A stretch of 24,116 nt of DNA from Chthonomonadales bacterium (lineage in GTDB: Bacteria; Armatimonadota; Chthonomonadetes; Chthonomonadales; Chthonomonadaceae). Within the stretch, counting starts at the first letter, position 1. Each line of letters starts with the position of its first letter. Of the stretch, positions 1 to 17,608 are shown piece after piece. The stretch is taken from positions 1-24,116 of the forward strand of contig JBBQPO010000062.1 in the NCBI GenBank assembly GCA_038217285.1, given 5' to 3'. A model generated the notes under the pieces. It did not search any database. It saw nothing but the letters and a program-made list of their open reading frames with translations, and was not told the DNA's origin. The position numbers and the translations under genes are program-made.

Positions 1-138
1 AGTTTCCATGCCTATCGTCGTCGTCAGCGTCAAAAGAAGGTCTATGGTTACTGGAAAATCGCCCGACCAGACGAATTGACGACGCCATTACGGTTTGCAG
101 CGTAGACAAAGTTTCACCCAATGAAATGGAACGCACCC
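1..138 (+). mobile_element. Probable right end of an ISKra4-family insertion sequence (transposase C-terminus 1-105, terminal IR ~122-138), cut by the window edge
   Basis: Frame +1 reads SFHAYRRRQRQKKVYGYWKIARPDELTTPLRFAA* (TAG 103-105), resembling remembered ISKra4 transposase C-termini. 122-138 reverse-complements to GGGTGCGTTCCATTTCA, similar to GGGTGCG-starting ISKra4 IRs. Only 34 codons are visible. Confidence 0.4.
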
Positions 139-592
139 AAAAGAAATCGGCCTTGGGCTCATTGAGGCCAGGCAAAACCACGCCGGATACGGCCTTAGGT
201 TCTATAACGACGATGCCGGCAAAACGCCGAAAGTGAGTGGGGTTCATGGTGAGAATGTGAGTAACGCCATGCGCTTGCATAACGGCTACAAGGCGCGCGT
301 CGTAAACTTGTCGTCCGATGATGCTGTAGGTGTCTACGAGGCTGCGCCACAAAGGAAAGATTGCTTCGATCTTTGTGGCTTCAAGACTGGCTTGGGCTGC
401 TGTCATACCCAGGCCGTTTGCTTCCATGGGGCGGGTCGCAAGCGCATGGAACTCAACAATAACTTGCGCTGTAATGTAAAGGACCTCGCCTTGCTGTCTC
501 AATTGGTCTATCGCCTGGTTCACAACGGTATATTGCGGATCGGCGGGCAGCACACGTCTGGCGGCCACATTGGTATCGACAAGATACGCCAT
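1..592 (-). CDS. PIN-domain (VapC-like) toxin; frame stays open to the window edge
   Basis: Not in the ORF track. Manual translation from ATG 592 (TGATG overlap with the antitoxin stop): MAYLVDTNVAARRVLPADPQY...YITAQVIVEFHALATRP..NGLG...GRQVYDARLVAVMQAHGVTHILTMNPTHFRRFAGIVVIEP. Shows the PIN DTN, E and D motifs. PIN similarity ends near 190, and no in-frame stop occurs down to base 2. Confidence 0.85.
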   Translation of the reverse strand, partial: MAYLVDTNVAARRVLPADPQYTVVNQAIDQLRQQGEVLYITAQVIVEFHALATRPMEANGLGMTAAQASLEATKIEAIFPLWRSLVDTYSIIGRQVYDARLVAVMQAHGVTHILTMNPTHFRRFAGIVVIEPKAVSGVVLPGLNEPKADFFWVRSISLGETLSTLQTVMASSIRLVGRFSSNHRPSFDADDDDRHGN

Positions 593-900
593 CAGAACCT
601 GTCCTCATACAGGTTCTCACGGTCGAATGCGGCCTCTGTAAGCACCGGCAGGCTCTTGTTCATCTGGGCAACCTCATCCAGTGCGCCATTGAACTGTTCG
701 CGGGTCGCCGTAAAGTAGAAGTGATTTCGGTCAGGCATGTGCGGCGCAGCGATTCCGTTCTGTCGTTCATTGTCAGCGATTTCCGGCAAATGTGCTGTTA
801 TGAGATTCTTAATGAACTCGGCCGGATCCTGCCTCTTCTGGCGGGCTGCCGCCATCACGCGTTCTTGTTCGGTCGGCGTCAAGTCAATCGTCACGGTCAT
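592..900 (-). CDS. Putative antitoxin (102 aa) for the downstream PIN toxin
   Basis: Small ORF coupled to the PIN gene. N-terminus MTVTIDLTPTEQ resembles the other antitoxins here. GGGAGG RBS and the conserved leader motif lie upstream. Confidence 0.8.
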   Translation of the reverse strand: MTVTIDLTPTEQERVMAAARQKRQDPAEFIKNLITAHLPEIADNERQNGIAAPHMPDRNHFYFTATREQFNGALDEVAQMNKSLPVLTEAAFDRENLYEDRF

Positions 901-1013
901 GGCGACCCTCCCTCTACTGCGGTAGCTTCCTTATTGTACCAGAACTGCTACGGCGCATCCAAGGGATGGAAATAGACTTTGATAGCCTGTTGGTTTTCGA
1001 ACAGGTTGATGGC
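891..1013. repeat. Direct repeat copy A: displaced dehydrogenase 3' end + leader + antitoxin start
   Basis: Aligns by hand to 10486-10619 with 13 mismatches in 123 nt (ignoring the 11-bp duplication in copy B). Minus strand encodes AINLFENQQAIKVYFHPLDAP* versus AIDLLESQQAIKVCFHPWDAP* in the intact gene. Confidence 0.95.
932..945 (-). promoter_or_regulatory. Conserved leader motif GTTCTGGTACAATA, copy 1 (contains extended -10 TGnTACAAT)
   Basis: Exact 14-mer, 31 nt upstream of ATG 900. Confidence 0.75.
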
Positions 1014-1144
1014 GATAAACAGAGCCGATAGCTTGAGGAGGACCAGGACACCTAACGTTATTTCGGCGGCTCCTGACGAGACCTGGTCAGCCTGGTACAA
1101 GATTTGCTTTGGTTCAGAACAACCGGGGCCGATGCGCCTCCGCC

Positions 1145-1477
1145 TTATCTGCGCCGCCTGCGGAGCACGAACCAGACGACGCTCCAGGCCCCTGCCCACG
1201 TTCCTAGAGGCAGACCAACCAGTGTGCCCCAAACAAGGCTGCCGAACATTCTTTCCATATCGATCAACTCGTGTCCGACGGGCAGCAACTGGGCCGCCGC
1301 CAGAAATACCAGCACAAAGCCCACCAGGCCCCCGAGTATGCTCAGTCCGGCGCACGCCGCGCAGGCTGCCCACTGCTGTCCATGGCGCACCAGCACCCGG
1401 CAGGCCGTAAGCACGGGCAAGACGAAACAGATCAGCATGAAAGTGACGATGAAGGCGCTGCCGGAGACTGTTCCCAT
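1145..1477 (-). CDS. Small membrane protein (110 aa, about 3 hydrophobic segments, C-terminal RRRRR)
   Basis: Hydrophobic ORF with GAGGTG RBS and a TATAAT about 30 nt upstream. Confidence 0.65.
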   Translation of the reverse strand: MGTVSGSAFIVTFMLICFVLPVLTACRVLVRHGQQWAACAACAGLSILGGLVGFVLVFLAAAQLLPVGHELIDMERMFGSLVWGTLVGLPLGTWAGAWSVVWFVLRRRRR

Positions 1478-1577
1478 ACCCCACCTCTTCCGCTCAGGAT
1501 GATCCTATTATAGAAGAGATAATGCAGAGGTGCATGGGGCTTTCGGCCTATTTATCAGGTTGTTCCTGAGGGAGAGT

Positions 1578-1877
1578 TCACAGTGTGGCGCGACAACCGC
1601 AGGCAAAGGTGAGGGAAACAGGCGAACTGTACTCGTCTGTTTGTCCGTCATGATAGTGGTGGACACGGTTGGTAGTGGGGTCGAAAATGACGATGTCGCG
1701 AATACCCTGGGTGAGATAGAAGGGGAGGCTGATCTCGGTGTCTTTCTTTTCGTAGCCTTTGCTGAGGATCTCGATGACGGCTTCCGGGATCATTTCGCAC
1801 ATCGTATCTTCCTCGGCAGGTTCCTCGCAAAAAATCGAAATGTCCGGGCGTTTCGTAGAGCCATCAGGAAAGAGAAT
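1578..1877 (-). pseudogene. 3' part of a Uma2-family PD-(D/E)XK endonuclease gene interrupted by an IS
   Basis: Reads ILFPDGSTKRPDISIFCEEP...IPEAVIEILSKGYEKKD...FYLTQGIRDIVIFDP (Uma2 PD, VIEILS and DP motifs). Begins exactly at the IS right end. Confidence 0.9.
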
Positions 1878-2050
1878 GTGACAACTCCCCAGCGATAAAT
1901 CGCGGGGCTTCTATCCTGTCAAGCAGGAACGCTGTGTTGCCCCACAACGATTTTTAGGAGATACAAGGCGGCGATTAGGATATTCCGAGCGGCGTTCACG
2001 TCCCGATCCAGCACAAGGCAGCAGCAGGGGCAGACATGTACGCGAACGGC
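1858..2050 (-). ncRNA. Predicted TnpB reRNA (omega RNA); guide about ATTCTCTTTCCTGATGGCTC; 5' boundary approximate
   Basis: Established TnpB biology: the scaffold overlaps the tnpB 3' end and right end, and the guide is the flank beyond the right end (1877 downward). Confidence 0.6.
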
Positions 2051-3121
2051 AAGCGTCTTGCGCTTATCCTTTTCGGGCCGGCAGCCACAGCCGGAGCAGT
2101 CCTGAGAGGTGTGAGCAGGATTGACCGCGATCACTTCACGAGCAGCGTTTTCAGCTTTCTGCGTGAGGAGAGCACGGAACATACTCCAACTGGCGTCGGC
2201 TATGGATTTGTTGAGTCCGCCCTTCGCGGCGGCTCCGTTGGGAAGAAACTGTCCGAGGTTTTCCGGGTCCGGTTTCGCTTTGGGCGTCGCCATCATATTT
2301 TCGACATGGAGTTCTTCGACGGCGATAAGGCCGAAGCGGTTGACGAGTTTGCGGGCGAGTTGGTGAACGAAATCGTGACGGCGGTTTTTGATGCGCTCAT
2401 GGATACGGCCAATGACCTTCTTAGCTTTCCTTCGCGCGGGGCTTCGATGCTTGTTCTTCACCTTATCGAACTTGTGCTGAGCCTTCGCAAGTTCCTGTTG
2501 CTCGTTGCGGAAGAAGCGGGGATTTTCGATAATCTCTCCGTTCGAGAGAGCGGCAAACTTCGATAGTCCAACGTCAATACCGATCTTTTCTGCGGAGGCA
2601 GGAAGTGGTTCGGCTTCAACTTCGCAGGAAAAGAAGACATACCATTTCTCGCCTTGACGCTGAACAGTGCAGGTCTTGACTTTGCCGTCTACGCGCCGAT
2701 GCAGAACCGCTTTGAGGGTTCCGATCTTGGAAAGATAAACGGATTGCTCCAACACCTTGAAACCGGCCTGCGGATAGGTGATGCTGTCGTATTGGCCTTT
2801 ACTCTTGAAGCGCGGATAACCGGGAGTTTCCCCTGCCTTCACACGCCGGAAGAAGGCTTGGAAGGCGAGGTCAACACGCTTGGCAACGTTCTGCAAAACC
2901 TGACTGAAAACGTCGTAAAGTTCGGGATGAGCGTCCTTCCACAGGGGAAGGTGTTTCTGTTGATCGTAGCAAGAAGGCGACTTTCCGCAGAGTTCAAAGT
3001 CGTGCTTACGTTGGCTGAGGAGGCTGTTATAGACTTCCCGACACGTTTCCAAAGTCTCCCGCAAGGTCGTTTCCTGCGCGGGGGTCGGATACAATCTGAA
3101 CTTGAAAGTTTTCCTGTTCAT
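1919..3121 (-). CDS. tnpB: RNA-guided endonuclease TnpB (400 aa)
   Basis: N-terminal FKFRLYPT, RuvC-I GIDVG, RuvC-II AVEEL, zinc finger CSGC/CPCC, RuvC-III DRDVNAARNI. All three catalytic acidic residues are present. Confidence 0.96.
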   Translation of the reverse strand: MNRKTFKFRLYPTPAQETTLRETLETCREVYNSLLSQRKHDFELCGKSPSCYDQQKHLPLWKDAHPELYDVFSQVLQNVAKRVDLAFQAFFRRVKAGETPGYPRFKSKGQYDSITYPQAGFKVLEQSVYLSKIGTLKAVLHRRVDGKVKTCTVQRQGEKWYVFFSCEVEAEPLPASAEKIGIDVGLSKFAALSNGEIIENPRFFRNEQQELAKAQHKFDKVKNKHRSPARRKAKKVIGRIHERIKNRRHDFVHQLARKLVNRFGLIAVEELHVENMMATPKAKPDPENLGQFLPNGAAAKGGLNKSIADASWSMFRALLTQKAENAAREVIAVNPAHTSQDCSGCGCRPEKDKRKTLAVRVHVCPCCCLVLDRDVNAARNILIAALYLLKIVVGQHSVPA

Positions 3122-3128
3122 CCTCTAT

Positions 3129-3157
3129 AATATACAGACAAACGCACATTTGTGCAA
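3129..3157 (-). promoter_or_regulatory. Predicted sigma70-type promoter of tnpB
   Basis: TTGCAC-17 nt-TATATT just upstream of ATG 3121. The -35 overlaps the inverted repeat TGCAAGT-N6-ACTTGCA (3153-3172). Confidence 0.55.
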
Positions 3158-3258
3158 GTTTATAGACTTGCAAAGCCCGATGCTGAGACATCGGTTTCGC
3201 AACACGATGACGCCGTATCCCCATGGATGAATCAAGGGGCATTGGCATTATGGATTTG

Positions 3259-3450
3259 GTAAATATCTGCATAGTGGATACAGCCGTATCCGCCTGCGTC
3301 CTGGTGAGTAGTCGTTATGCTTGCACGAATCCGATCCGTGATACGCTGATGCCGGATCACGGGCGAAGCTTCCCAGATGGGAATACCGCTGACGTATTCC
3401 AACCGGATGCCCAGCTCCTCTGCACGCTGTTCCATTGCTGCCGTAAGCAT
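3259..3450 (-). pseudogene. 5' part (64 codons) of the interrupted Uma2-family endonuclease gene
   Basis: MLTAAMEQRAEELGIRLEYVSGIPIWEASPVIRHQRI...GCIHYADIY (Uma2 E-x-x-x-G...SP...H motif) with GAGGAG RBS. Joined to 1877 it gives ADIY|ILFPDG, 163 aa. Confidence 0.9.
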
Positions 3451-3483
3451 CGTTTCTCCTCAGCTACATTAGCGATCATTTTT

Positions 3484-3497
3484 TATTGTACCAGAAC
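3484..3497 (-). promoter_or_regulatory. Conserved leader motif GTTCTGGTACAATA, copy 2
   Basis: Exact 14-mer, 33 nt upstream of Uma2 ATG 3450. Confidence 0.75.
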
Positions 3498-3613
3498 GGA
3501 TGCAGTGTATCCCAGGAAGTGCGCTCGGTACAAGGATTCCGGCTGCGCCGCAACGAAAAGCCTTTCGACGAGCGCCGCCGCCCGATCGTACCGGACAGAG
3601 GAGAACCCACACC

Positions 3614-6583
3614 GTGCGTTATCGAACAACCTGTTTCACGGTATTGCGCGCAGGTGGGCTCGGGGTTTTTGTCGCACTAGCCCTGGTCTGTCTGTGGCCA
3701 CACGCCTCCGCAGCACAGGGCGCGCTGCCGGTGAAGTGGATATACGCCCCGATGACCGAGGTCGATGGCGTGGCCTATTCGCCGGACGGAACACGGCTGG
3801 CCCTGGTGGGCGTCTACCACGGCAAAGATCCCATCGTCCAGATTCATACCGTTGCAGGCAGAGCGGTCATCTGCCTTCCGACTTCCGCCAATGAGGCTGT
3901 GCATGCCGTCGCCTTCTCTCCGGACGGTAAGACACTCGCGGTCGGCGGGTTGCGGCATCGTTACTCCCTCGACCTCGCCACGGTCGCTTATACAGGCGTG
4001 CTTGAGTTGTGGAACGTCTCCACCGGCAAACGCATCGCTGCGCTCGATACTGCGGCCAATAGCAGCGGCGCGGCTCTGCTGGTCACAGGAGGCGTACAGT
4101 CGGTCGCGTTCTCTCCGGACGGCACGACGCTCGCAGACGGCGGCTACAGCGGCACGGCAAGCAGCGCTGGCAGCGTCGTCGAGTTGTGGGACGTCGCGAC
4201 GCGGCAGCGGACCGCCATGCTCAGCACCGCCGCGAATGCGGGCATCTCCTCCGTCGCCTTCTCCCCCGACGGCAGCACACTCGCCGACGGCGGCGTCAGC
4301 GTCAACACCGCGACCGGCGCGAATAGCGGCGTGCTGGAACTCTGGAGCCTCTCCGGCAACAATCTCCTCGAATCGCTCGGCACCGCGGCCAATACCGGGG
4401 TGCGCTCGGTCGCCTTCTCCCCAGACGGCAAGACGCTCGCGGCCAGCGGCCAGAACTATAACGTCGCGACCGGCGTCTCCAGCGGCGTCCTGGAACTGTG
4501 GAGCGTCGCGACCAGCGCACTCACGAAGAGCCTGGGCACCGCAGCCGCCTCGGGCGTGAACGGGGTCGCTTTCTCCCCCGACGGCAGCACACTGGCAGCC
4601 GGAGGCTCCAGCGGCGCGGCAGGCCAGTCCAGCACCGTGCTGGAGTTGTGGAGCGTCCCCGGCGGCACACGGATCACCAAACTCTCCGCAGCAGACCTCG
4701 TCCACGCGGTCGCCTTCTCCCCCGACGGCAAAACGCTCGCCGACGGCGGCGTGTTGAATGTTGGCGAATATGGCGTGGCCCACCGCTGGAACGTCTCGAC
4801 CGGCACGCTCCTCGAAACGGTAAACACGGTCGCTATTGGTAACGTCCAGTCCATCGCCTTCTCCCCGGATGGGAAGACCCTCGCCTCCACCGAGGGGGGT
4901 TACGACTCTCTGGGTAAGTATTTTACAGCGATCAATCTGCGGAGCATCTCCACCGGCGTTCTGCTCACCTCGCTGCCGACCGCCGCCAACGACTTCGCCC
5001 CCTCGGTCGCCTTCTCCCCGGATGGAAACACCCTCGCCATCGGAGGAACGAACTACACCGAGACCCCGACCGGCCCGACCTATAAAGGGGTGCTGGAACT
5101 ATGGAACGTCTCGACCGGGAAACGCATCGCATCGCTCCCCACCGCTGCCAACGGTATCGTCAAATCGGTCGCCTTCTCTCCGAATGGACGCAGACTCGCC
5201 ATCGGCGGAGCGAACTCCATTCCCGGCCTCGTGCCCTCTCCCGTTCTGGAGATGTGGAACGTCTCCACCGCGACGTTGATCACCTCGCAGACCCGCTCTG
5301 ATCCGGGCGGGGGCTACACCTCCGTTGTCTTCTCTCCGGACGGGGCGACGCTTGGGGTCGGCGGCTTTGGTGGCACACTGGAGATCTGGGATGTCGGCCG
5401 CGCCGTGCGGACGGCCAGCATCAAAACGGCCGCCGACGGCGCTGTCTACGCAGTCGCCTTCTCCCCGGATGGCAGGACGCTCGCGGCTGGCGGCGCCTTA
5501 CGGGCTACGCGTGCCGCCGTGCTCGAGCTATGGGATCTGCCCACCGGTGCGCGGCGCGCGTCTCCGGCGCCTGTTCCCGGCGATTATAAGGTCTCCTCGC
5601 TCGCCTTCGCACCGCGCGGCAACGTTCTGTTCGTGGGCACCGACGCCAACCTGCAGATCTTCAATACGGTGACCGGCGGGCTGCTGAGCTACGATTTCCA
5701 GTATACGAACTCCGACGGCCCCGAATCGATAGCCGTCTCCCGCGATGGCAGACTTCTGGCCTACGGCACAGGCACAGGTACGCTCGCGATCGCTCCGGCG
5801 CCCTATTCCCGCACCTTTCTGGACTTCAACGGCGACGGCCTCACCGACCTGCTCCTGCAGAACGCCACGACCGGCGCGATAGCCGCCTGGTATATGAACG
5901 GCGGCAGTCAGGCAGGCAGCGCACCCTTCTCCCTCAGCCCCTCCCCAGACTACGCTCTGGTCGGTGTCGGAGATTTCGCCGGAGACGGAACCGCCGCGCT
6001 CGTTCTGCAGAACCGCGCCGACGATACCATTGCTCTCTGGTACACCGGAGGACTCAATAGTACGCTCATCACCGGCGCAGACTATATCCGTCCCAACCCG
6101 CTGCCGGGATGGAAGGTGGTGGGCGTCGGCGACTTCAACGGCGACGGCAAGTCCGACCTTGTCTTCCAGAACCGAACCACGAATCAGATCGTGATCTGGT
6201 TTATGGACGGTCCCGTCTATCAGGGCGGCGCGAGGCTGCCGTATACTCCGCCGGCCGACTGGCAGGTCGTGGGCACCGGAGACTTCAATGGGGACGGCTA
6301 CGCCGATCTGGTGTTTCAGAACCAGACCTCCGGTCAGATCGTCGTCTGGTATATGAACGGTGTCACTTATTTGGGAGGAACCGCGCTCGCCAACGTTCCC
6401 GATCCGGGCTGGAGGGTCGTGGGGATAGGGGACTACAACCAGGATGGCTCTCCAGATCTGCTCCTGCAGAACCGGACCACCAACCAGGCAGCCGTATGGT
6501 ACTTCCAGAACAGCATGTTGCAGGGCAGCGCCGGCCTCTCCGCCATCCCACCGCCAGGATGGCAGATCGTCGGTCCTCGCTGA
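3614..6583 (+). CDS. Secreted WD40-repeat protein (14 repeats) with 5 C-terminal FG-GAP/VCBS-like repeats
   Basis: 14 counted AFSPDG-type repeats and 5 (G)DFNGDG..DL-type repeats. Signal-peptide-like N-terminus ending ASA-AQ. GTG 3614 follows AGGAGA and is in frame with the ORF opening at 3500. Confidence 0.9.
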   Translation: MRYRTTCFTVLRAGGLGVFVALALVCLWPHASAAQGALPVKWIYAPMTEVDGVAYSPDGTRLALVGVYHGKDPIVQIHTVAGRAVICLPTSANEAVHAVAFSPDGKTLAVGGLRHRYSLDLATVAYTGVLELWNVSTGKRIAALDTAANSSGAALLVTGGVQSVAFSPDGTTLADGGYSGTASSAGSVVELWDVATRQRTAMLSTAANAGISSVAFSPDGSTLADGGVSVNTATGANSGVLELWSLSGNNLLESLGTAANTGVRSVAFSPDGKTLAASGQNYNVATGVSSGVLELWSVATSALTKSLGTAAASGVNGVAFSPDGSTLAAGGSSGAAGQSSTVLELWSVPGGTRITKLSAADLVHAVAFSPDGKTLADGGVLNVGEYGVAHRWNVSTGTLLETVNTVAIGNVQSIAFSPDGKTLASTEGGYDSLGKYFTAINLRSISTGVLLTSLPTAANDFAPSVAFSPDGNTLAIGGTNYTETPTGPTYKGVLELWNVSTGKRIASLPTAANGIVKSVAFSPNGRRLAIGGANSIPGLVPSPVLEMWNVSTATLITSQTRSDPGGGYTSVVFSPDGATLGVGGFGGTLEIWDVGRAVRTASIKTAADGAVYAVAFSPDGRTLAAGGALRATRAAVLELWDLPTGARRASPAPVPGDYKVSSLAFAPRGNVLFVGTDANLQIFNTVTGGLLSYDFQYTNSDGPESIAVSRDGRLLAYGTGTGTLAIAPAPYSRTFLDFNGDGLTDLLLQNATTGAIAAWYMNGGSQAGSAPFSLSPSPDYALVGVGDFAGDGTAALVLQNRADDTIALWYTGGLNSTLITGADYIRPNPLPGWKVVGVGDFNGDGKSDLVFQNRTTNQIVIWFMDGPVYQGGARLPYTPPADWQVVGTGDFNGDGYADLVFQNQTSGQIVVWYMNGVTYLGGTALANVPDPGWRVVGIGDYNQDGSPDLLLQNRTTNQAAVWYFQNSMLQGSAGLSAIPPPGWQIVGPR

Positions 6584-6686
6584 CCGCGCCAAAACGACTA
6601 CGACGCGTCCCACGGCGTAAAGGTCTTGCCTTCTCTTCCCCAGGAAGCGAGCCTGCCGGATCGTCGGAGCGCAATCTGTTCGGTGG

Positions 6687-7142
6687 TTATGGGAGGATGT
6701 GGGTCCAGAGATCGGCGGAAACGAAGCGAGAGATATGGGCGACGTTCGAAGTCGCGACGATAACATCAGAGGAGGGAGCCGCAAGCGTTTTTGCCTGGGC
6801 AGCGAGGATCACATCGATGTCCAGCTTTTTCGGGTCGCCGGTCGGAACACCAGTACGCCGTGAGTAGGCCCAAAGGTCGGCGGCGAGCAGTATGGCTTCC
6901 GTCGTGATCGGAAGGTAGGAGAAGAGCGTCTTCAAGCCATCCAGTTTGGCAACGCCATTTGTCTTGTTCGCCCGTAGAAGTTCACGGCGCAATTCGTAGT
7001 CGATAACTTCCGGGATGTAGAGACGATCACCGGCGACCAGTAGCGCTCGGCTCCATCGAGTGATAGCCAGAACTTCCGTGCTGCCGGAGGGACTGGATAA
7101 GAGGCTCAATGGAGAAGAATCAAGGACAATGTGGCGGATCAT
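6687..7142 (-). CDS. PIN-domain toxin-like protein (151 aa), intact
   Basis: IVLDSSPL...IPEVIDYELRRELLR...LDIDVILAAQA...VATSNVAH. ATGA overlap with the upstream antitoxin. Confidence 0.88.
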   Translation of the reverse strand: MIRHIVLDSSPLSLLSSPSGSTEVLAITRWSRALLVAGDRLYIPEVIDYELRRELLRANKTNGVAKLDGLKTLFSYLPITTEAILLAADLWAYSRRTGVPTGDPKKLDIDVILAAQAKTLAAPSSDVIVATSNVAHISRFVSADLWTHILP

Positions 7143-7465
7143 GGGAAGACAAGTCTCTCGCCTAAAGCGGCGCGGTTGGCGTTCAGATTGCGCTTTAGCT
7201 CTTCAAGTTCCCGCTCGGCCTGCCGTTTCGTCTGCTCATCAGCACCGGTGCCTTCGGCGATCCAAGAATCAAGGAGTGCGATGGCGGCTGCGTTCTTCGC
7301 ACTGATGACGTGCGCGGACTGTTCTGCCTCTTTTTGCATTGGGATTGGAGGCAACTGCGCGTCAATCAGTCGCTTGACGATTTCCGCAGGCGGCAATCCA
7401 AGTTGTGAGGCCTGGTCAGCAAGCCAGGCTTCCTCACGAGGGGTGACGTCGATGTGTAGGGTCAT
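7139..7465 (-). CDS. Putative antitoxin (108 aa), paralog of 10166-10495
   Basis: ATG 7465 after GGAGG. MTLHIDVTPREEAWL...ELEELKRNLNANRAALGERLVFP. Coupled to the PIN gene. Confidence 0.82.
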   Translation of the reverse strand: MTLHIDVTPREEAWLADQASQLGLPPAEIVKRLIDAQLPPIPMQKEAEQSAHVISAKNAAAIALLDSWIAEGTGADEQTKRQAERELEELKRNLNANRAALGERLVFP

Positions 7466-7478
7466 TGTATGCCTCCAT

Positions 7479-7661
7479 TCACAGTAATCGTTTCTCGTAT
7501 TGTACCAGAACTCTCGGTACGAGGATCCGTAGCGGTAGGCGCCCGATCCCAGGAGCATTGACGCCCACACATGGCCGGGCCTTGTGGATCTCTGCGCCGC
7601 GCGTAGGATTCAAATCGATTCGCCATATTTCGCCGCGTTGTGGATCAGGGGGTGGTCTCAT
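7479..7661 (-). pseudogene. Truncated PemK/MazF-family toxin (family similarity ends at ~7515)
   Basis: PQRGEIWRIDLNPTRGAEIHKARPCV...GRLPLRILVP is a typical MazF N-terminal half. It then reads into the leader motif and stops at 60 aa. Confidence 0.88.
7498..7511 (-). promoter_or_regulatory. Conserved leader motif GTTCTGGTACAATA, copy 3
   Basis: Exact 14-mer, 32 nt upstream of ATG 7465. Abuts the mazF breakpoint. Confidence 0.75.
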
Positions 7662-7953
7662 GGAAAGGCCCCCCTTCCAAACTACTGAAGGCGGTTAGTT
7701 CGCGTTCTGAGGGAGGCCGCGCCAAGTCGGCGATATACAGCGGTGCGGCGTCCTCAGCCTGAAGCGCCAGCAAACGGTTGCGTTCTTCATGAGGAAGCGT
7801 TCGCAATGTAAGGGGATCAGCGCAGCGTGCCATGCGGGCGATGATGGCTTGAACATAGACTTCCAGCGTCAGCCCCTGCTGTCGGGCCTGCGCCTGAAGG
7901 TGATTTTGCTCATCGGTTTCCAAGTTGACGGTTAAGTGTAGCGTCACAGACAT
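7645..7953 (-). CDS. Putative antitoxin of the MazF-like toxin (102 aa)
   Basis: ATG 7953 after AAGGAG. Overlaps the mazF start by 17 nt. N-terminus (LTVNLETDEQNHLQAQARQQGL) resembles the other antitoxins. Confidence 0.75.
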   Translation of the reverse strand: MSVTLHLTVNLETDEQNHLQAQARQQGLTLEVYVQAIIARMARCADPLTLRTLPHEERNRLLALQAEDAAPLYIADLARPPSERELTAFSSLEGGPFHETTP

Positions 7954-7996
7954 GAGTTTCTCCTTTCCCAATCGCTGCCTTCAACTTCCTGTCCCC

Positions 7997-8158
7997 CTAC
8001 ACGTGTTCACGGTCGAACGCAGAATCGGGAAGCACAGGCAGATTCTTGTTCCTCTGTGCGATCTCATCGAGTGCGTCATTAAACTGTTCATGGGTGGCCG
8101 TAAAATAGAAGTGGCTTCCGTCTAAAGCGTTTTGAACCGCTCCACGGGCGTTGCGTCG
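7997..8158 (-). pseudogene. Remnant of an antitoxin paralogous to 592-900 (C-terminal half only)
   Basis: Manual translation HFYFTATHEQFNDALDEIAQRNKNLPVLPDSAFDREHV* versus HFYFTATREQFNGALDEVAQMNKSLPVLTEAAFDRENLY. In-frame TAA upstream, no start codon, no PIN gene downstream. Confidence 0.85.
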
Positions 8159-8209
8159 TTACCCTATTGTATTTGCCGCTGCCGTCAGAGGATCGACCGG
8201 GCCTAGCGT

Positions 8210-9955
8210 CTAACGGTGATAGACGCCGAAGACAAGAGCAAGGACCAGAAGCAGGGCAATCAGCACGAGACGCTTTGGAACCGTGTGGGACGGCGTCCCA
8301 GTGACGGAGGGGACCGCCTTCTCGGAGATCACCTCCTCCCCGGCAGCATCGTCTCCCCTCGACTGATCCTCGTCTCTCTGCGCCCAGTGCCCATCCGGAA
8401 TAAAGTCCGGGCTATCGAAGTAGTATTGTCCTTCTGCCTGTAGGACTCGCTCGAAGAACTGAGGCAGGCCCGTGGCGATGACAACGGAGTTCGCCTTCGG
8501 CATGACCTGCTGTGAAGCATTCACAGGATCCGGTTCGAGCCGTCCCAGCACGATCCAGCACTCCCTTTTCAGGAGGCGCGGACGGTCGCCAGTGCGCCAG
8601 AAAGATACCCACGTAAAGCCGATACTGCGCCCGTCTGCCAGATCCGCGAAGCGGACATAGGAGGCACCCCTATCGTTGTGCAGGGTGAAAGAGCTGGAAC
8701 GGAGCAGCCTCCAGGGATGGTCGGTCTCCGCGAACAGTTTGCCTCCATCGCAATGGCACATCATCTCAACGAACTCTACTGGAATGGAGACCCATTCCAG
8801 TACCAGTCGCTCGAAGCCGGGCGCATACCTTGGCGGGTTCAGCGTATGCTCACGCGCCAATTTCTCCAGAATATCCGTCAAGGCGCTCCGCTCCTGAACG
8901 CCCCAACCCACTTCCGCTTGCACGCAGCCGGTGAGTGGATCCTGCGTGACTCCGAAGAAGCCGCCAAGAAACTCAAGAGGAATGGCGGCAGAGGCTGATT
9001 CACCGAGTTCGAGGCTTACGGGTACACTGGAGAGGCCGTTGGGAAATAGTCTCAGGGGCAAACCGTCTTCTGCTGTCAACTGCGAACGAGGGATGCAGAG
9101 AAGGGGATTCACGACGTCTGGCCTCTCTTCTCGATTGAGAAGGTACGGGAAGAGATCGGCGATCCATCCGGTGATCGTGTCGCCTCCGTACGCCTCTTTC
9201 GGTTTGTAGATCTGCTGCCAGAACTGGATCGGAGGGCGTCCTTCCGCCGTGGCGATGAAAGCGTCGCAGAGGGGAAGGAGTCGGTCCGTCCACCAACTCA
9301 ATCGGTAGGGCGCGAGCCGCTCGACTCGCTCCCGAATCGTCCTCCAGTCCCCTACCGTGCCGTACAGGGTAATTGTCGGGATGCCGCAGATACAACGCAC
9401 TGCATAGTCGAAGTAATGTTGGAACGCCTCCATCATGACCACCTGGCTGGCGATGCGGATGACCGGTGTGGTGGTGCTGAAGTCGCAGAGCAGCGTGTCG
9501 TGGAGATCGGGAGCGATGTGGCTTGCAATCTGTTGCGTCCACTGGTTCGCCGCATCGGCCCAGTCTTCCTGGCGCGTCACTTGCTTCACCTCCGCACGAA
9601 GCAGCATTTTGCCTTCGTGGCGCATCAGAAGAGGACGCAGATCTTCCTGATGGTTGTTGGCATGCTGCGCGAAGCCCTGGGCAATCGTGAGCCAGATCAC
9701 ATCAGGAGTGAGGGCCAGAGGCAGATGTCTGCTGAACGCGAGATGGACGGCGCTGAGGAGGGCATGGCACCCGTCGTCCTCCACGACCCGGAAATGGGAG
9801 GGATGGCTTGTGACCCGCAGAGAGCGTTCCGTCATCTTCTCCACTCTTGTCCAGAGAGAAACACTGGGGAAACGAGCCGCGCCGTGCTTGACGGAGTCTA
9901 CAGCGAAGGTGATCTTGTTCCGGTCGTCAGAGACGCGGTAGGTGGGAGCGACCAT
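8210..9955 (-). CDS. DUF4419-domain protein with possible SMI1/KNR4-like C-terminal domain and terminal TM helix (581 aa)
   Basis: AFSRHLPLALTPDVIWLTIAQGFAQH, CDFSTTT, YFDY...CGIPTITLYGTVGDW and ITGWI match remembered DUF4419 motifs. Hydrophobic C-terminal LVLIALLLVLALVFGV. Confidence 0.8.
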   Translation of the reverse strand: MVAPTYRVSDDRNKITFAVDSVKHGAARFPSVSLWTRVEKMTERSLRVTSHPSHFRVVEDDGCHALLSAVHLAFSRHLPLALTPDVIWLTIAQGFAQHANNHQEDLRPLLMRHEGKMLLRAEVKQVTRQEDWADAANQWTQQIASHIAPDLHDTLLCDFSTTTPVIRIASQVVMMEAFQHYFDYAVRCICGIPTITLYGTVGDWRTIRERVERLAPYRLSWWTDRLLPLCDAFIATAEGRPPIQFWQQIYKPKEAYGGDTITGWIADLFPYLLNREERPDVVNPLLCIPRSQLTAEDGLPLRLFPNGLSSVPVSLELGESASAAIPLEFLGGFFGVTQDPLTGCVQAEVGWGVQERSALTDILEKLAREHTLNPPRYAPGFERLVLEWVSIPVEFVEMMCHCDGGKLFAETDHPWRLLRSSSFTLHNDRGASYVRFADLADGRSIGFTWVSFWRTGDRPRLLKRECWIVLGRLEPDPVNASQQVMPKANSVVIATGLPQFFERVLQAEGQYYFDSPDFIPDGHWAQRDEDQSRGDDAAGEEVISEKAVPSVTGTPSHTVPKRLVLIALLLVLALVFGVYHR

Positions 9956-9992
9956 TTTTGCCCTCTCCTTGGGAACAGGGTAGAAAACTCTC

Positions 9993-10166
9993 CTATGCTC
10001 TGTTCGACGTGCGTACGTCCCAATCGTAGTCGATCACCTCCGGGACGTAAATGTGATGACCGGTTGCAAGGCAGGCAGCGGCCCAATGGGAGATGGTAAT
10101 CACTTCGGGGCTGCGGGCCGGACTGCATAGGAGCGCCAGCGGAGAGGAGTCCAGAAGGATATCCAT
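9993..10166 (-). pseudogene. Truncated PIN toxin, paralog of 6687-7142
   Basis: Not in the ORF track. MDILLDSSPLALLCSPARSPEVITISHWAAACLATGHHIYVPEVIDY|DWDVRTSNRA* (57 aa). Homology stops after VIDY (~10025). TGATG coupling to the antitoxin. Confidence 0.88.
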
Positions 10167-10495
10167 CAGGGAAAGACTAGCCTTTCCCCGGTCGCCGCTC
10201 GATTGGCGTTCAGGTTGCGTTTGAGTTCTTCCAGTTCTTGCTCGGCCTGACGTATTTCCTCCGGATCAGCCGTCGCATCCTCTTCCCTCCAGGACTGTAA
10301 CAGGGCAATAGCGGCTCTGGTCCTGGCGTCGATTTCTACGACCTGCTTCGCGTGCGCGATTTGTCTCATGTCAGCATCAGGCATGCGCTCATCCACCATT
10401 TGCTTGATAGCTTCGGCAGGAGGTAGTCCCTGCTGCAACGCCTGCGCGGCAATCCAGGCTTCTTCCTGCGGAGTAAATTCTATGGTCAGGGTCAT
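10166..10495 (-). CDS. Putative antitoxin (109 aa), paralog of 7139-7465
   Basis: MTLTIEFTPQEEAWI...ELEELKRNLNANRAATGERLVFP, GGAGG RBS. Confidence 0.85.
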   Translation of the reverse strand: MTLTIEFTPQEEAWIAAQALQQGLPPAEAIKQMVDERMPDADMRQIAHAKQVVEIDARTRAAIALLQSWREEDATADPEEIRQAEQELEELKRNLNANRAATGERLVFP

Positions 10496-10619
10496 GGCGA
10501 ACCTCCATCTACTGCGGTAGCTTCCTTATTGTACCAGAATTGTACCAGAACTGCTACGGCGCATCCCAGGGATGGAAGCAGACTTTGATGGCCTGCTGGC
10601 TTTCGAGGAGATCGATGGC
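10486..10619. repeat. Direct repeat copy B (intact dehydrogenase 3' end + leader) with an internal 11-bp tandem duplication
   Basis: Matches 891-1013. ATTGTACCAGA occurs twice in tandem (10528-10549). Confidence 0.95.
10527..10551 (-). promoter_or_regulatory. Conserved leader motif, copy 4, tandemly duplicated (GTTCTGGTACAATTCTGGTACAATA)
   Basis: 31 nt upstream of ATG 10495 and 2 nt after the dehydrogenase stop. Confidence 0.75.
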
Positions 10620-11537
10620 TTCGTTGTAGCGTTCGAGGGGAAGAGTATGCGTGACGAGGAGGGTCAGGTCGAGTTGGCCTGCAGTGATGAGGGCGACGGC
10701 GTACTCGGCGGCGGCGCGACTGTGGCCGGGATAGCCGCAGAGGCGCAGCATGGGGTGATAGTGGCGCGGGGTGAAGGCGTAGTCTTCGCGCTGCACTCCG
10801 AAGAGGGCGAGGGTGTTGCCGACATGATCCATGAGCCACTCGACGGAGCGCTTCGCGCCGACGCAGTCGATGCCGCAGTGCAGGGTCGTAGGCCTGGGGC
10901 GCGCGGGATAGAGGTCTTCGGGGGCGGAGCGAGGGTCGCAGGCGGCGTCGACGAGGTTGTGTTCGACGGCGAAGCGGCAGCGCTCGGCGGATAGATCGAA
11001 GCCGATGACAGCGGACGCTCCCTCCGCCCGCGCCATCTGCGCCGCGATCAGACCGGCCGGTCCCAGGCCGTTGACACCGACATTTTGGCCTGCCAGCACG
11101 TTCATTTCGCGCAGCATCAGGAAGGTCGCGCCGACGCACATCGCAAGCTCTACGGAGGCGGTCGCCTCGTAGGGCAGTTCAGCAGGGACCGGGATGACGC
11201 TCTCGGCGTTCAAAGCGACGAACTGCGCATAACAGCCCGGTCTGCCGTGCCCCGCATCGCGCCACGCGCTCACGCGCTGCCCGATGGTCAGCCCCTTCAC
11301 GCCCTCTCCCAGAGCCGCAATGGTTCCGGTCGCCTCATGGCCGGGCTGGCCCAGCGTGTAGGGGTAGTGGAAGCGGTGACCGAGAAACATCGGCTCGTCG
11401 TGGCGCAGGTGGAGATCCCACTGCGGACAGGTCGTCACCGCCTCCACACGCAGCAGAACCTCGCCCGGCCCCGGCTCCGGCACAGGCACGTCGAGGATGT
11501 CAAACGCCGGATACGCCCCGATCTGCAAGACTTTCAT
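10554..11537 (-). CDS. Zinc-binding MDR-family dehydrogenase (327 aa)
   Basis: GroES-like start (PEPGPGEVLLRV), TTC..D, GHE motif, Rossmann GLGPAG. No four-Cys structural zinc lobe. Confidence 0.92.
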   Translation of the reverse strand: MKVLQIGAYPAFDILDVPVPEPGPGEVLLRVEAVTTCPQWDLHLRHDEPMFLGHRFHYPYTLGQPGHEATGTIAALGEGVKGLTIGQRVSAWRDAGHGRPGCYAQFVALNAESVIPVPAELPYEATASVELAMCVGATFLMLREMNVLAGQNVGVNGLGPAGLIAAQMARAEGASAVIGFDLSAERCRFAVEHNLVDAACDPRSAPEDLYPARPRPTTLHCGIDCVGAKRSVEWLMDHVGNTLALFGVQREDYAFTPRHYHPMLRLCGYPGHSRAAAEYAVALITAGQLDLTLLVTHTLPLERYNEAIDLLESQQAIKVCFHPWDAP

Positions 11538-12541
11538 GCCGCTTCCTCCCAGTCCAGTATCACGCCCAGCACCGGCTCACGCCGGGACAGAATGAGGTCG
11601 AACGCTTGCGCCGCCTGCGCGACAGGGAAGTGGTGGGTGATGAGCGGCAGGGTCTGTAGGACGCCCTGCCGCAGCAGCTCCAGCGTTCGCTCGATCCGCT
11701 CGCCGGTCCATCCGGCGGGAGTGCGCAGGGTCATCTCGTAGTCGCGCATCTTCTGGACATCGATCTGCCCGGCCCGCCCATAGAAGCCCGCCGAGACGAA
11801 CTGGCTGAAACGGCGCATGGTCGGAAAGAGCGATTCCACCGTCGGAATCGAGCCAACGGTGTCTGCCACGACCTGCACCGTCCGTCCGGCCCATTCGCGT
11901 ACGGCCTCGATGGCATCCACCTCGCCGATGTTGACGCGCCGGTCGTCCGGCCCCGCCTCGAAAAGTTGCAGACGCTCCTCGTGCTTGCCCAGCATCAGCA
12001 CCCTGGCACCCCGATGCTTCAGGGTCTGCGCGGCCCACTGCCCCACCATCCCGTCCCCGATCACGACCGCCGCGTCGCCCGGTTTCATTGTGGGACACTG
12101 CCCGACGTTGTAACCGACCTGCGTCAATACAAGCCCGCTCGCCGCGACCGGATCGACATCGGGCGGCAGCCTCCACACCTGCGATTTGTGGGTGACGGAC
12201 GGGGAGATATGCCCACCGGACGAATAGAACATCCCCTCGACTCCGGAGACCGTCGCGAAAACGGTGTCGCCGACCGCGACATGGGAGACATTCGCGCCGA
12301 TACTCTGCACCACCCCCACCTTCTGATAGCCGGGAACATGGGGGAAAGGCAGCGGATCGGTATCGGAGCGCGGCGTGTCGCCTCCGATGCGCTCGCCGCG
12401 CACGAACGAGCCCTCCGTGCCGTTGCTGATCCAGGAGTGCGTCAGTCGAACCACCACATCCTCCGGGCCGGGATCGGGAACCGACACGGTCTGGAACGCG
12501 ACGCGCCCGCGCTCCACCGCGACAACCGCCTGCGCCTGCAT
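11534..12541 (-). CDS. MDR-family dehydrogenase-like protein (335 aa) lacking canonical catalytic-Zn ligands
   Basis: PDPGPEDVVV...ISNGTE...PGYQ, Rossmann GDGMVG, LITHHFP. ATGA overlap with the next gene. Confidence 0.9.
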   Translation of the reverse strand: MQAQAVVAVERGRVAFQTVSVPDPGPEDVVVRLTHSWISNGTEGSFVRGERIGGDTPRSDTDPLPFPHVPGYQKVGVVQSIGANVSHVAVGDTVFATVSGVEGMFYSSGGHISPSVTHKSQVWRLPPDVDPVAASGLVLTQVGYNVGQCPTMKPGDAAVVIGDGMVGQWAAQTLKHRGARVLMLGKHEERLQLFEAGPDDRRVNIGEVDAIEAVREWAGRTVQVVADTVGSIPTVESLFPTMRRFSQFVSAGFYGRAGQIDVQKMRDYEMTLRTPAGWTGERIERTLELLRQGVLQTLPLITHHFPVAQAAQAFDLILSRREPVLGVILDWEEAA

Positions 12542-12602
12542 AGAAGAACCTCCTCATCGAGAACTAAATAGATAGAGCCGGGACGGCAAAAGGCGAGGCA
12601 GT

Positions 12603-13649
12603 CTATGGCGGGGGAACGGCCATGGGGAGGCTGGTGGAGAGGAGCACGCGGTGATCCTGCCAGAAGGCTTCGACGCAGACAGACAGGCTGCCATAGTTGA
12701 GATACCAGAGAACGCCGGTGTCGATGGTCGGTTCGATCTGCACGGTGACCGGCTGTGTGACGGTCTCACCAGGGCCTACTTCCCAGCGGAAGACCTGCAT
12801 AGCGTTGGTAGCGGGACTGGTGACGCGCACACCGGGCGGCAGAATCATCTGAAACAGCCCGCCTTCCAGGCGTTCGCCGCCATTGTGGACACGTAGAGTG
12901 AGCTCGATATGATCTCCGGGTTCGATATCACGCACCTGTTCGCGCTCGATCCGCAGGCTCAGCATCCGTTCGCCCTCACCGATACGCCAGTCGCAGCCGG
13001 TCAGCGCGGGGCCAATGCCTTCGCTGTCCGATTTCGAGGCGCCTCCCTCGAGCCGCAGCCGCACATAGTCGGCGGTGACGTAGGCGTGCCACTCCAGGTT
13101 CCAGGCGCACTCGGTATTCGGGATCGGAGTACAGGCGTACTGGTTGAGCGGGTGCGTCAGGCAGAACTCGGTGAGCAAGGGATAGTCTAAAGGCTGCAGC
13201 AGCCGCAGCATCTTGCCGTGGGCCGTGGGGACGAAGCCGAGCCCGGTGTAGAGGCGATGTCCGGCGGTGTTGTCGATCTCTGTCTGGAGGAAGAGAAAAG
13301 CGAAGCCGCGCCGCGCCGCCTCTTCACGGCAGGCGCGCGTCAGCATCTGTCCCAGCCCCATACGCCGATAGTCCGGACGGACGCTCAGATTCACCAACTC
13401 CGCAAAGGGCGGGCAGAACGCCTCCAGCCCGACACGGGCTGCAATGACCCCGTCCACCTCCGCGACAATCTCCTTAAAATAGTGCTGGGCCTGCCACTCG
13501 GCATCCGCTTCCGGCAGGACACGGTGCCGAGTCGGCGCTTCGGCCCACCCTACCGACCACTGCACTGCCAGTGCGCGTGCCCGATCTTCCGAGCCGGAAG
13601 TTCGCAGCACGATCCTCGGCTCCTGCGGGGAACCTGCTTCTAATCTCAT
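12603..13649 (-). CDS. GNAT-family N-acetyltransferase with C-terminal extension (348 aa)
   Basis: LSVRPDYRRMGLGQML acetyl-CoA motif and N..GHRLYTGLGF. Beta-rich C-terminal region. Confidence 0.88.
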   Translation of the reverse strand: MRLEAGSPQEPRIVLRTSGSEDRARALAVQWSVGWAEAPTRHRVLPEADAEWQAQHYFKEIVAEVDGVIAARVGLEAFCPPFAELVNLSVRPDYRRMGLGQMLTRACREEAARRGFAFLFLQTEIDNTAGHRLYTGLGFVPTAHGKMLRLLQPLDYPLLTEFCLTHPLNQYACTPIPNTECAWNLEWHAYVTADYVRLRLEGGASKSDSEGIGPALTGCDWRIGEGERMLSLRIEREQVRDIEPGDHIELTLRVHNGGERLEGGLFQMILPPGVRVTSPATNAMQVFRWEVGPGETVTQPVTVQIEPTIDTGVLWYLNYGSLSVCVEAFWQDHRVLLSTSLPMAVPPP

Positions 13650-13902
13650 TGATCCGGTTTCCTTACTGTACCTGCACGATAGGGGTGATGATCTGCAATT
13701 TCTGCATGAGCGTCCGCGTCACGTCCGTTCGATTAGATTGCGCACAGTCTGTTGAGTTCCCTGCCGTAACTCTCCCGCGATGCATGACGACCGTGAAAAC
13801 CTCGTGTATTTATGGACGCCTGGAGAGTTGGGGTTATGATAACAGACGGCGAGGCTTTTTGGCAAGCGGATTGCTGCGCGCTCAAAACGGCAGAGGAGAA
13901 AC

Positions 13903-14064
13903 ATGTTTCGCTCTCGAACCGATGTCCAGCAACAGACAGCAGGGGTTGCAAACCGGGGAGTGATTGCCTTTCTGCATACGCCGCCATATCCCGTGATGAA
14001 TCAGCCCAAACGCAAGGAAAAAGAGATAAACGCAAAGGAAAAAAACCCTTCGGCGGTGAAATGA
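13903..14064 (+). CDS. Possible 53-aa small protein
   Basis: AGAGGAG 4 nt before ATG. MFRSRTDVQQQTAGVANRGVIAFLHTPPYPVMNQPKRKEKEINAKEKNPSAVK*. No recognised family. Confidence 0.3.
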   Translation: MFRSRTDVQQQTAGVANRGVIAFLHTPPYPVMNQPKRKEKEINAKEKNPSAVK

Positions 14065-14175
14065 GCATTAATAGCGACGCGCGGCGGGCCAACAGAGCCT
14101 GGTTTTTCTGTCTTTTCGCCCCGCTGCACTTTTCGACAATTGAGATGCACGGATCAGGACAACGGAGTTTTCGAC

Positions 14176-15615: not shown

Positions 15616-15725
15616 CGCGCTTCGCTGGCTCTCAATAAGGAGGCTGCGGTGGAGCCACAGAAGGCAACCAATCCCGTCTTCTACCAGACGATCCTTGCTG
15701 TTGTCTTCCCACGCGAGAGGAACAG

Positions 15726-17595: not shown

Positions 17596-17608
17596 AAAGT
17601 GAGGCTGG

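Follow-up and report, generated by a model that had tools for sequence, protein, structure and literature searches.

How a run of toxin-antitoxin (TA) modules, mixed with genes of quite different kinds, came to stand directly behind a conserved dehydrogenase gene, and whether the short leader shared by its units is a recombination site or a promoter, are the questions raised by a stretch of DNA of 24,116 bp from a Chthonomonadales bacterium (GenBank assembly GCA_038217285.1, contig JBBQPO010000062.1). This stretch, referred to here as the window, is one complete contig (C62) of an assembly labelled G000, which comprises 6.2 Mb in 459 contigs with 60% G+C and is 95% complete, and the sequencing runs in which it occurs carry the label "sediment metagenome". 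The array follows ADH1, a gene of the zinc-type alcohol dehydrogenase (ADH) family with Pfam ADH_N and ADH_zinc_N domains (10554-11537), and like ADH1 it is encoded on the minus strand except where stated. The reading we favour, with a probability of roughly 0.5, is that the islet varies among strains and occupies a hotspot of recombination immediately behind ADH1, where DNA would have entered by ADH1-anchored recombination and displaced older units one after another. The structure looks like a known kind with described parallels and not like a new cassette system.

The segments of the array are bracketed by a direct repeat composed of the last 22-65 nt of ADH1 together with the promoter-like motif that follows, and four copies of this unit are found in one orientation at 10552-10619 (copy 1), 932-1013 (copy 2), 3484-3523 (copy 3) and 6581-6621 (copy 4). 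Copy 2 consists of a 65-nt tail remnant (948-1013) and the motif (932-945), and it aligns over 81 nt at 88% identity with 10539-10619, where 25 of the 26 final tail bases are identical. It also has the lineage-specific ending of ADH1 (HPWDAP-stop), and its leader is nearly identical to that of copy 1 in an alignment of 150 nt that fades into the start of the antitoxin gene. In copy 3, the motif (3484-3497) adjoins a decayed tail (3498-3523) in which 15 of 26 bases equal those of ADH1 (empirical p 5.9e-4 at fixed position). The tail of copy 4 (6596-6621) matches ADH1 at 17 of 26 bases (p 2.6e-5) and has its stop codon (6598-6600) in register; its motif is degenerate, with GTTTTGG retained and the -10 element lost. 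The heptamer GTTYTGG is kept in all four copies and also in two congeners, G003 and G004. A further copy of the motif at 7498 is preceded by MazF codons, and the 26 nt upstream of it match the ADH1 tail at 8 of 26 bases, which is the chance level. The upstream ends of the repeat differ, lying 0, ~22 (copy 4), ~22-26 (copy 3) and 65 nt (copy 2) before the stop codon or motif.

Three segments are bracketed in this way, a TA/DUF4419 block (6620-10575), a segment with a WD40 gene (~3524-6580) and one with a Uma2 gene split by a TnpB element together with a membrane protein gene (1014-3483), and past copy 2 an antitoxin-PIN unit is followed by a repeat resembling the end of an insertion sequence (IS), with which the contig ends. 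The G+C content varies by segment, from 0.50-0.57 to 0.60-0.68 and then 0.56-0.59. No further copy of the ADH1 tail was found elsewhere in the whole assembly, and no arm-like similarity was seen between the sequences that flank copies 3 and 4 on the left.

The presence of the first segment differs between strains. We aligned Logan contigs from four runs to positions 1-13000 of the window, and in run X2 a contig of 997 nt was found to be collinear with 11067-10576 and then with 6619-6115, with no extra letters at the joint (492 + 505 nt). This contig is ~94% identical to the window, with 27-33 mismatches per ~500 nt. Its junction reads as an intact in-frame ADH1 end, IKVCFTPWDAS-stop, which has the same length as IKVCFHPWDAP-stop in G000, and the FTPW form of the ending also occurs in congeners G001 and G003. 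Because X2 joins 10576 to 6619 with an intact ADH1 end, copy 4 is seen to be a displaced native ADH1 end, and the segment at 6620-10575 (~3.96 kb) is present in G000 and absent from the X2 haplotype. A mis-join in the assembly graph is unlikely since copies 1 and 4 share no 31-mer. The breakpoint lies inside the direct repeat, within the ADH1 tail and ~25 nt upstream of the motif. X2 also covers the 5' end of the WD40 gene, copy 3 and the Uma2 side; at copy 3, six differences are listed in the 26-nt tail and none in the motif, and applying these six lifts the match of copy 3 to ADH1 from 15/26 to 17/26, which supports both the reading of this stretch as a tail and a constraint on the motif. 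A contig of run X4 that matches 6781-7517 loses the match 6 nt past the motif at 7498 and continues for 107 unaligned letters past 7517. Runs X2-X4 are without cover in 7813-9982 and, apart from the bridging contig, missing cover of this kind carries no evidential weight.

A similar variability is observed behind ADH1 in relatives, for which the comparison set consisted of four congeners (G001-G004), 40 relatives used for motif counts and 80 metagenome loci with ADH1 orthologues. ADH1 is present in all four congeners at 80-86% identity, and in two, G001 and G003, the second dehydrogenase gene ADH2 was found as its neighbour. The DNA that follows ADH1 is different in each of the four. In G004, the motif (one mismatch) and an orthologue of the antitoxin gene antA (64%) are found before the contig ends, while in G003 the motif stands directly past the stop codon and is followed by a duplicated promoter region of ~100 nt and a hisD-like gene; similarity to G000 ends at the motif. 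The ~100-nt duplication in G003 (locus L015) is of the promoter region of the hisD-like gene itself and falls within the first ~200 nt past the ADH1 stop. Neither motif nor TA module is found behind ADH1 in G001, and G002 has no motif and carries a CRISPR array from ~90 nt past the stop (locus L014). The closest of the 80 metagenome orthologues have 86-87% identity, and this search returned no strain-level relative. The 12-mer core of the motif, TTCTGGTACAAT, was found at up to two mismatches within 70 nt past the ADH1 stop in none of the 72 metagenome loci with downstream sequence, and one locus has a two-mismatch match at +80. At the position of the motif, the metagenome relative L093 has TTCTTGACAAC, which reads as a -35 box and then TAGAAT. 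The genes downstream of ADH1 in G001, G002 and L093 are on other G000 contigs (C144, C347, C217, C278 and C7) or are missing, and the far flank of the islet is therefore not placeable.

The motif itself is a 14-mer, GTTCTGGTACAATA, with exact matches on the minus strand at 932-945, 3484-3497 and 7498-7511 and an overlapping tandem pair with one mismatch each at 10527-10540 and 10538-10551. At up to three mismatches there are six matches in the window against 0.58 expected, and six were reached in none of 100 shuffles. The tandem pair is due to an 11-bp tandem duplication (TCTGGTACAAT twice) at 10527-10551, 2 nt past the ADH1 stop, which results in two overlapping -10 elements. The exact 14-mer occurs three times in the 6.2-Mb assembly, always on the window contig, and five of the six genomic occurrences of the 12-mer are also on this contig.

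Extended -10 (TGn) promoters of the sigma-70 type have the consensus TGnTAnAAT and require no -35 element. The 14-mer includes TGGTACAAT, whose TGgTAcAAT fits this consensus, and it starts 45-47 nt ahead of the ATG in all four units (4/4), each of which has a GGAG-type ribosome site. It differs from the general type in that the four bases GTTC directly ahead of TGgTAcAAT are conserved as well. Motif-like 12/13-mers (at most one mismatch) number 78 in the four congeners against 19 for a reversed control and 190 against 71 in the 40 relatives (summed rows), whereas in G000 outside the window contig no enrichment is seen (5 against 5). In the relatives, such sites are located 18-115 nt upstream of panD (in three congeners, above the cut-off), purC, metF and other ordinary genes. 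Because the motif is enriched in relatives, stands upstream of ordinary genes and keeps a similar spacing to the ATG in the four units, we infer that it is an extended -10 promoter of a type common in this lineage and not a signal specific to this locus. Units A and A' of the array share an identical 13-mer here despite an overall identity of 62%, and the five copies at this locus are taken to share a common origin and to have been preserved by selection. A promoter scan based on two hexamers did not flag the motif sites since they have no -35 element, and its 9 terminator-like sites are no more than chance would give (9.3 expected). Different TGn-type -10 elements are used by the other TA paralogues in G000. 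A likeness ahead of the 7498 and 3484 motifs, TCCTYGTACCGAG, was dropped as a signal as it is MazF coding sequence at 7498.

The TA modules are found in several states of decay. Next to ADH1 is unit A, with a putative antitoxin gene, antA (10166-10495, an ORF, that is, an open reading frame, without a complete partner), and a PIN toxin gene fragment (9993-10166; tblastn 57% identity at 10160-10023) whose homology to the PIN gene of unit A' is limited to residues 3-48 and ends at 10023. Unit A' is formed by motif copy 5 (7498-7511), an exact match which is its predicted promoter and has no ADH1 tail ahead, the putative antitoxin gene antA' (7139-7465; 60% aa identity to antA) and an intact PIN toxin gene (6687-7142; Pfam PIN E 5.4e-6, above the cut-off) with paralogues of 53-68% identity on contigs C178 and C129. 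Nucleotide homology between the two units extends from 10024-10539 to 6994-7510 at 62% identity over ~520 nt, and at this divergence they are taken to be old paralogues. Between them are an antB-type antitoxin remnant comprising the last 45 codons (7988-8122; 79% nt identity to 598-732 and 69% aa identity to antB' residues 57-101) and unit C. In the latter, the orphan putative antitoxin gene antC (7645-7971) has 38% identity to the gene upstream of an intact MazF gene on contig C75 and weak ribbon-helix-helix (RHH) matches only, and it is followed by the first ~49 codons of a MazF/PemK toxin gene (7515-7661; PemK profile positions 1-42 of 109 in a Pfam match on 7479-7661). Over residues 5-49, this fragment and the intact C75 paralogue have 53% identity, and homology stops at codon 49 (7515), 3 nt from the 7498 motif. 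In the array, antA stands with a PIN fragment of 48 residues and antC with a MazF fragment of 49 residues, and the antB remnant has no toxin.

Unit B' at the far end carries the putative antitoxin gene antB' (592-900), recognized by its position and by the start/stop overlap with a VapC-like PIN toxin gene (193-592; Pfam PIN E 6.7e-6). The PIN ORF continues into the IS-like repeat (the Pfam PIN match is above the cut-off for ORF 2-592), its match to an NCBIfam VapC subfamily reaches 30.8 bits, which is under the cut-off of that family, and paralogues of 48-62% identity are found on contigs C226, C55 and C411. The antB' protein has no Pfam family and a weak DUF6290 match (E 0.21), and its paralogues adjoin PIN genes on C411 and C226. 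The upstream position of the small putative antitoxin genes and their overlap with the toxin start were read from the sequence, and these proteins have no significant family in Pfam, NCBIfam or PADLOC; a PADLOC search of the small proteins gave no defence-system family. At least 67 small proteins are homologous to antA/antA', none of them with a Pfam family or an informative name, and those that are named are called "hypothetical" with one exception labelled 'spermidine/putrescine-binding protein'. They likely form an unnamed antitoxin family serving a subgroup of PIN toxins.

The survival of antitoxins next to cut toxins may be explained by selection exerted by the linked toxin. In an operon with the antitoxin first, any insertion or deletion that deprives an intact toxin of its promoter or its antitoxin should be lethal, and clipping of the toxin harmless, so that orphan antitoxins and toxin stumps at unit ends would survive. 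By the same logic, deletions would halt at the edge of a promoter, as at 7512-7514.

The gene order and the co-orientation of the TA and Uma2 units proposed in a first-pass annotation of the window were confirmed by ORFs, family searches and paralogue comparison, and so were its two truncated toxins (PIN and MazF) and its shared 14-mer leader, with five copies at 0-1 mismatch. That annotation had also suggested that the leader may be both a portable promoter and an anchor of recombination. The promoter part agrees with the consensus and context described above, but the anchor part was not supported, since the bracketing repeat is the ADH1 tail plus promoter, the X2 breakpoint is outside the motif and the motif is a common promoter type in the lineage. 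The genome scan it proposed found the exact 14-mer on the window contig alone, and in relatives motif-like sites stand upstream of ordinary genes. The ADH1-tail copy at 6581-6621, the decayed tail before the 3484 motif and the fact that the window is a whole contig with an IS-like end had not been mentioned in it.

Chromosomal integrons and the related clusters of attC sites lacking an integron integrase (CALIN) consist of small co-oriented units with many TA modules, in which the newest unit is nearest to the fixed end and the promoter is located at this end. The array resembles them in its small co-oriented units, many of them TA modules, in the presumed place of the newest units next to the fixed end and in the promoter at that end. 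It differs by the absence of IntI and of R''/R' inverted pairs, by repeats which are direct copies of a gene end and not imperfect palindromes, and by units that carry their own copy of the promoter; the promoterless state of integron cassettes is not found here, as four units each have their own promoter-like motif. The search with the IntI profile (TIGR02249) against the whole 95%-complete assembly gave a best match of 133.6 bits on another contig, where the cut-off is 265, though absence is not proven by this; sub-threshold matches of the same kind occur in 14/14 control genomes, and the tyrosine recombinase matches in G000 are generic. A crude scan of both strands for inverted pairs of R'' (RYYYAAC) with R' (GTTRRRY) at a spacing of 55-145 nt found none in 1-10650, and none was found in the flank at 12600-24116. 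Family searches of 1-12541 revealed no integrase or transposase except TnpB, and no integrase in the three segments; TnpB is also the one recombinase that they gave for the contig. The integron reading was rejected on account of these results (no IntI above the cut-off, no R''/R' pairs). The earlier annotation had noted that no integron integrase or canonical attC sites were in view and had inferred that the site is a repeatedly used hotspot; the first statement agrees with the profile search and inverted-pair scan, and the second with the differences behind ADH1 among congeners and the lack of 6620-10575 in X2.

How the islet may have grown can be outlined as follows. New DNA would enter repeatedly at the 3' end of ADH1, each entry bringing its own ADH1 end and usually also the following promoter, so that whatever had stood there before (ADH1 end, promoter and cargo) would move further downstream. 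The most likely route would be homology in ADH1 at one end of the incoming DNA and an illegitimate join at the other. The result would be a stack formed by the TA/DUF4419 block, the WD40 gene, Uma2 with the membrane protein and antB'-PIN, divided by decaying copies of tail and promoter. The motif would act as a junction promoter for the gene that comes first in each displaced unit, in three of the four units an antitoxin gene, which may be why it is intact. Later decay would have cut the toxin genes (PIN and MazF) while the antitoxins survived, and an IS would have split Uma2. Displacement is supported by the absence of an integrase, the unequal tail lengths, the heterogeneous cargo and the resemblance of the incoming tails to natural ADH1 alleles.

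Several observations speak against this displacement scheme. The displaced tails are all short (~22, ~22-26 and 65 nt) and two of them start at nearly the same ADH1 coordinate, which resembles a preferred crossover site more than random illegitimate joins. An anchor in ADH1 leaves the junctions between the PIN fragment and DUF4419, DUF4419 and the antB remnant, and the antB remnant and antC unexplained, and the A' leader has no tail. No donor sequence was identified. Measured against X2 and X3, the density of mismatches is 6.7-7.7% in 10576-11067 and 4.0-4.8% further upstream, and a sliding-window comparison places just the final 90 nt of ADH1 relatively closest to G004, which is otherwise the most distant of the congeners; this is a weak signal for an imported 3' part of ADH1, and the sliding-window identity among seven sequences gave no clear mosaic. 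In addition, the strain comparison was made with assembled contigs, so the joints and differences given are the best-supported ones listed and more variants are possible, and the promoter activity is a prediction from consensus and context.

The nearly equal starting points of two tails are among the features that would be expected under site-specific tandem accretion, in which the segments would be decayed elements of the type known as CIME (cis-mobilizable elements), inserted by an integrase for which the ADH1 end and the GTTYTGG core served as att site. The X2 empty site is exactly the product that a precise excision would leave, the displaced tails of copies 3 and 4 start at about -22, the incoming end restores the ADH1 reading frame, and GTTYTGG is kept in four copies and in G003 and G004, even in copy 4 where the -10 is gone. 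Direct repeats that include the 3' end of the target gene stand at segment ends, with the boundary at copy 4 confirmed by X2, and a scheme of this kind has been described for tandems of integrative and conjugative elements (ICE), integrative and mobilizable elements (IME) and CIME in the part of the review concerned (PMC5704250). The integrase, however, would have to have been lost, to lie past the IS-like repeat at the contig end or to act in trans, as none is present in the three segments or in 1-12541 and the best of the generic tyrosine recombinase matches (133.6 bits) is on another contig. With tails of unequal length (65 against ~22 nt), no arm-like similarity left of copies 3 and 4 and no other tail copy in the assembly, we regard accretion as tentative and on balance somewhat unlikely. 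A history confined to this locus, with tandem or segmental duplication of the ADH1-end/TA region, deletions and IS insertion and no import of DNA, appears quite unlikely. It would account for the paralogy of A and A' (62% over 520 nt), for copy 2 ending in HPWDAP-stop like ADH1 here, and for the local duplications, 11 bp in copy 1 and ~100 nt in the promoter region of G003. The cargo between the repeats is nevertheless unrelated (WD40, Uma2, DUF4419 and different TA families), G+C differs among the segments, and copy 4 has a G001/G003-like FTPW ending, which is the working end in X2. Close Uma2 relatives (84-93% aa identity) are moreover present in other metagenomes without the leader.

The reading of the 14-mer as both a recombination site and a portable promoter, with 14-mer-bounded units exchanged in a new cassette system free of an integrase, is highly improbable, mainly because the one mapped strain breakpoint is in the ADH1 tail, ~25 nt upstream of the motif. 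The five copies within 10 kb, the confinement of the exact 14-mer to this contig, the MazF fragment that ends 3 nt before a copy, the X4 contig on the A'-PIN unit that stops matching at 7517 and the end of G003 similarity at the motif all point towards such a site, but a deletion that halts at a needed antitoxin promoter is expected anyway from linked-toxin selection, and the motif belongs to a promoter type that is common in relatives. The repeat copies also differ in their upstream ends (0, ~22, ~22-26 and 65 nt), and neither attC-like inverted pairs nor IntI was found. It is likewise very doubtful that the ADH1 end with GTTYTGG-TACAAT is a true capture site, where a recombinase encoded elsewhere or a site-preferring host pathway would insert circular or linear cargo exactly. 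If it were, cargo would land under a resident strong promoter while older cargo keeps a promoter copy, and the locus would be an integron-like platform for expression and capture, with no linked integrase or attC, in an uncultured sediment bacterium. A dedicated recombinase, if one were found, would make the site a new kind of capture platform.

The reading preferred here, sequential displacement behind ADH1, has described parallels. The first-pass annotation knew of no described system with this signature, but the same logic is set out in at least the relevant parts of two papers (PMC5361080 and PMC5704250). Arrays of orphan immunity genes formed by sequential displacement are described for effector-immunity loci of type VI secretion systems (T6SS), where homology-facilitated illegitimate recombination was proposed, an explicit parallel to integrons was drawn and orphan modules of Rhs and contact-dependent inhibition (CDI) systems were cited (Kirchberger et al. 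2017, PMC5361080). In the sections of that paper drawn on here, incoming modules beside a conserved upstream anchor shift older ones downstream, the protective gene is kept and the toxic gene is lost or cut, and no integrase is involved, all of which resembles the present locus. The differences from those sections are that the anchor lies outside the toxin system, being formed by a housekeeping-type dehydrogenase gene's 3' end and the promoter downstream of it, that the cargo consists of type II TA modules with unrelated WD40, Uma2 and DUF4419 genes, and that here the antitoxin comes first and each displaced unit keeps a promoter copy. The review of integrative elements and their decayed att-flanked derivatives (CIME) describes, in the part concerned, tandem accretion at the 3' end of a target gene (PMC5704250). 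The likeness to that account is in the several tandem segments without integration or transfer genes and in the empty site of a relative as excision product; the differences are that no integrase of matching specificity was found in the assembly, that the repeats are of unequal length and that the segments are small (2.5-4 kb) with no relic of conjugation or mobilisation genes.

Read in this manner, the locus would be a record, dated by decay, of an accessory islet growing behind one conserved gene, with a natural empty-site variant, and it would extend the picture of sequential displacement from polymorphic toxin/immunity loci to ordinary type II TA modules. The lethality of promoter or antitoxin loss offers a simple reason for the survival of both amid the cutting of toxins. 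The locus also suggests caution, as a 'leader' shared in a gene array can be the standard promoter of a lineage carried along with a duplicated gene end.

Among the remaining genes of the array, the DUF4419 protein of the first segment (8210-9955; 581 aa, Pfam DUF4419 E 2.1e-72) has a hydrophobic C-terminal stretch and is encoded by a single-copy gene. A large WD40/FG-GAP repeat protein gene on the plus strand (3500-6583), convergent with ADH1, has Pfam WD40, PD40 and FG-GAP matches and internal repeats, and its real start may be downstream of 3500. The small hydrophobic membrane protein of 110 aa (1145-1477) is known as an ORF only, is single copy in the genome and matches no family in Pfam, NCBIfam or PADLOC.

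The Uma2 endonuclease gene is split precisely, with residues 1-64 and 69-163 of a 163-aa relative on either side of a TnpB element. The 5' part (3259-3450) has 84% identity to residues 1-64 of this intact relative and the 3' part (1578-1865; Pfam Uma2 E 1.5e-9) has 93% identity to its residues 69-163, and PF05685 was found in 72/72 homologues. None of 27 Uma2 orthologue loci has the 12-mer upstream at up to one mismatch, and hence the leader did not arrive with the Uma2 gene. The inserted TnpB-only element of IS200/IS605 type (1866-3258, bounds from the Uma2 alignments) carries a TnpB ORF (1919-3121) that matches NCBIfam guided_TnpB (NF040570) at 308.5 bits against a cut-off of 100, as well as the Pfam OrfB_IS605, Cas12f1-like TNB and HTH domains. 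It is without TnpA and has no Rfam match, guide RNA included; a scan of the whole window found no Rfam family reaching its gathering score. Elsewhere in G000 (C63:11500-12000), the C-terminal half of an antA-like gene stands directly after the 3' end of a TnpB-like ORF, an arrangement which looks like a second TnpB element disrupting a TA or accessory gene.

The contig terminus at 1-140 is a multi-copy IS-like repeat that abuts the 3' end of the PIN gene. It is 97-100% identical to the ends of four other G000 contigs (C153, C115, C104 and C57) and always stands at a contig end there. Congener G002 has a further 15 matches, which are weaker and for the most part also at the ends of contigs. The repeat probably represents one end of an IS, the interior of which is absent from the assembly. 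ORF listings of the four contigs show that none extends the array and none has an ADH1 tail. The only two repeats of the G002 CRISPR type in G000 are found at C104:138-236, directly beside this same IS-like end, and their orientation is incompatible with a simple join of C104 to the window contig.

On the other side of ADH1, ADH2 (11534-12541; Pfam) forms a conserved upstream flank and adjoins ADH1 in eight of the ten relatives' loci retrieved. The right half of the contig contains housekeeping genes, including those for a GNAT acetyltransferase, a 2-oxoacid dehydrogenase E2 component, an MFS transporter, UvrD and ParA/ParB. The parA and parB genes are located at the right end (22408-24094), from which a replication origin may be near the locus. 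At 13664-13677, a relative of the motif with three mismatches, GTGCAGGTACAGTA, is followed by AGGAA as in copies 1 and 2 and stands 15 nt ahead of the GNAT gene, whose start is at 13649. Finally, comparison of the G000 assembly with itself gave 38 local pairs of repeats on the same strand, which are 60-400 nt long, lie 0.8-25 kb from each other and have an identity of at least 78%. Islets of a similar kind might be marked by some of these pairs, such as those on C152, C264, C171 and C193.

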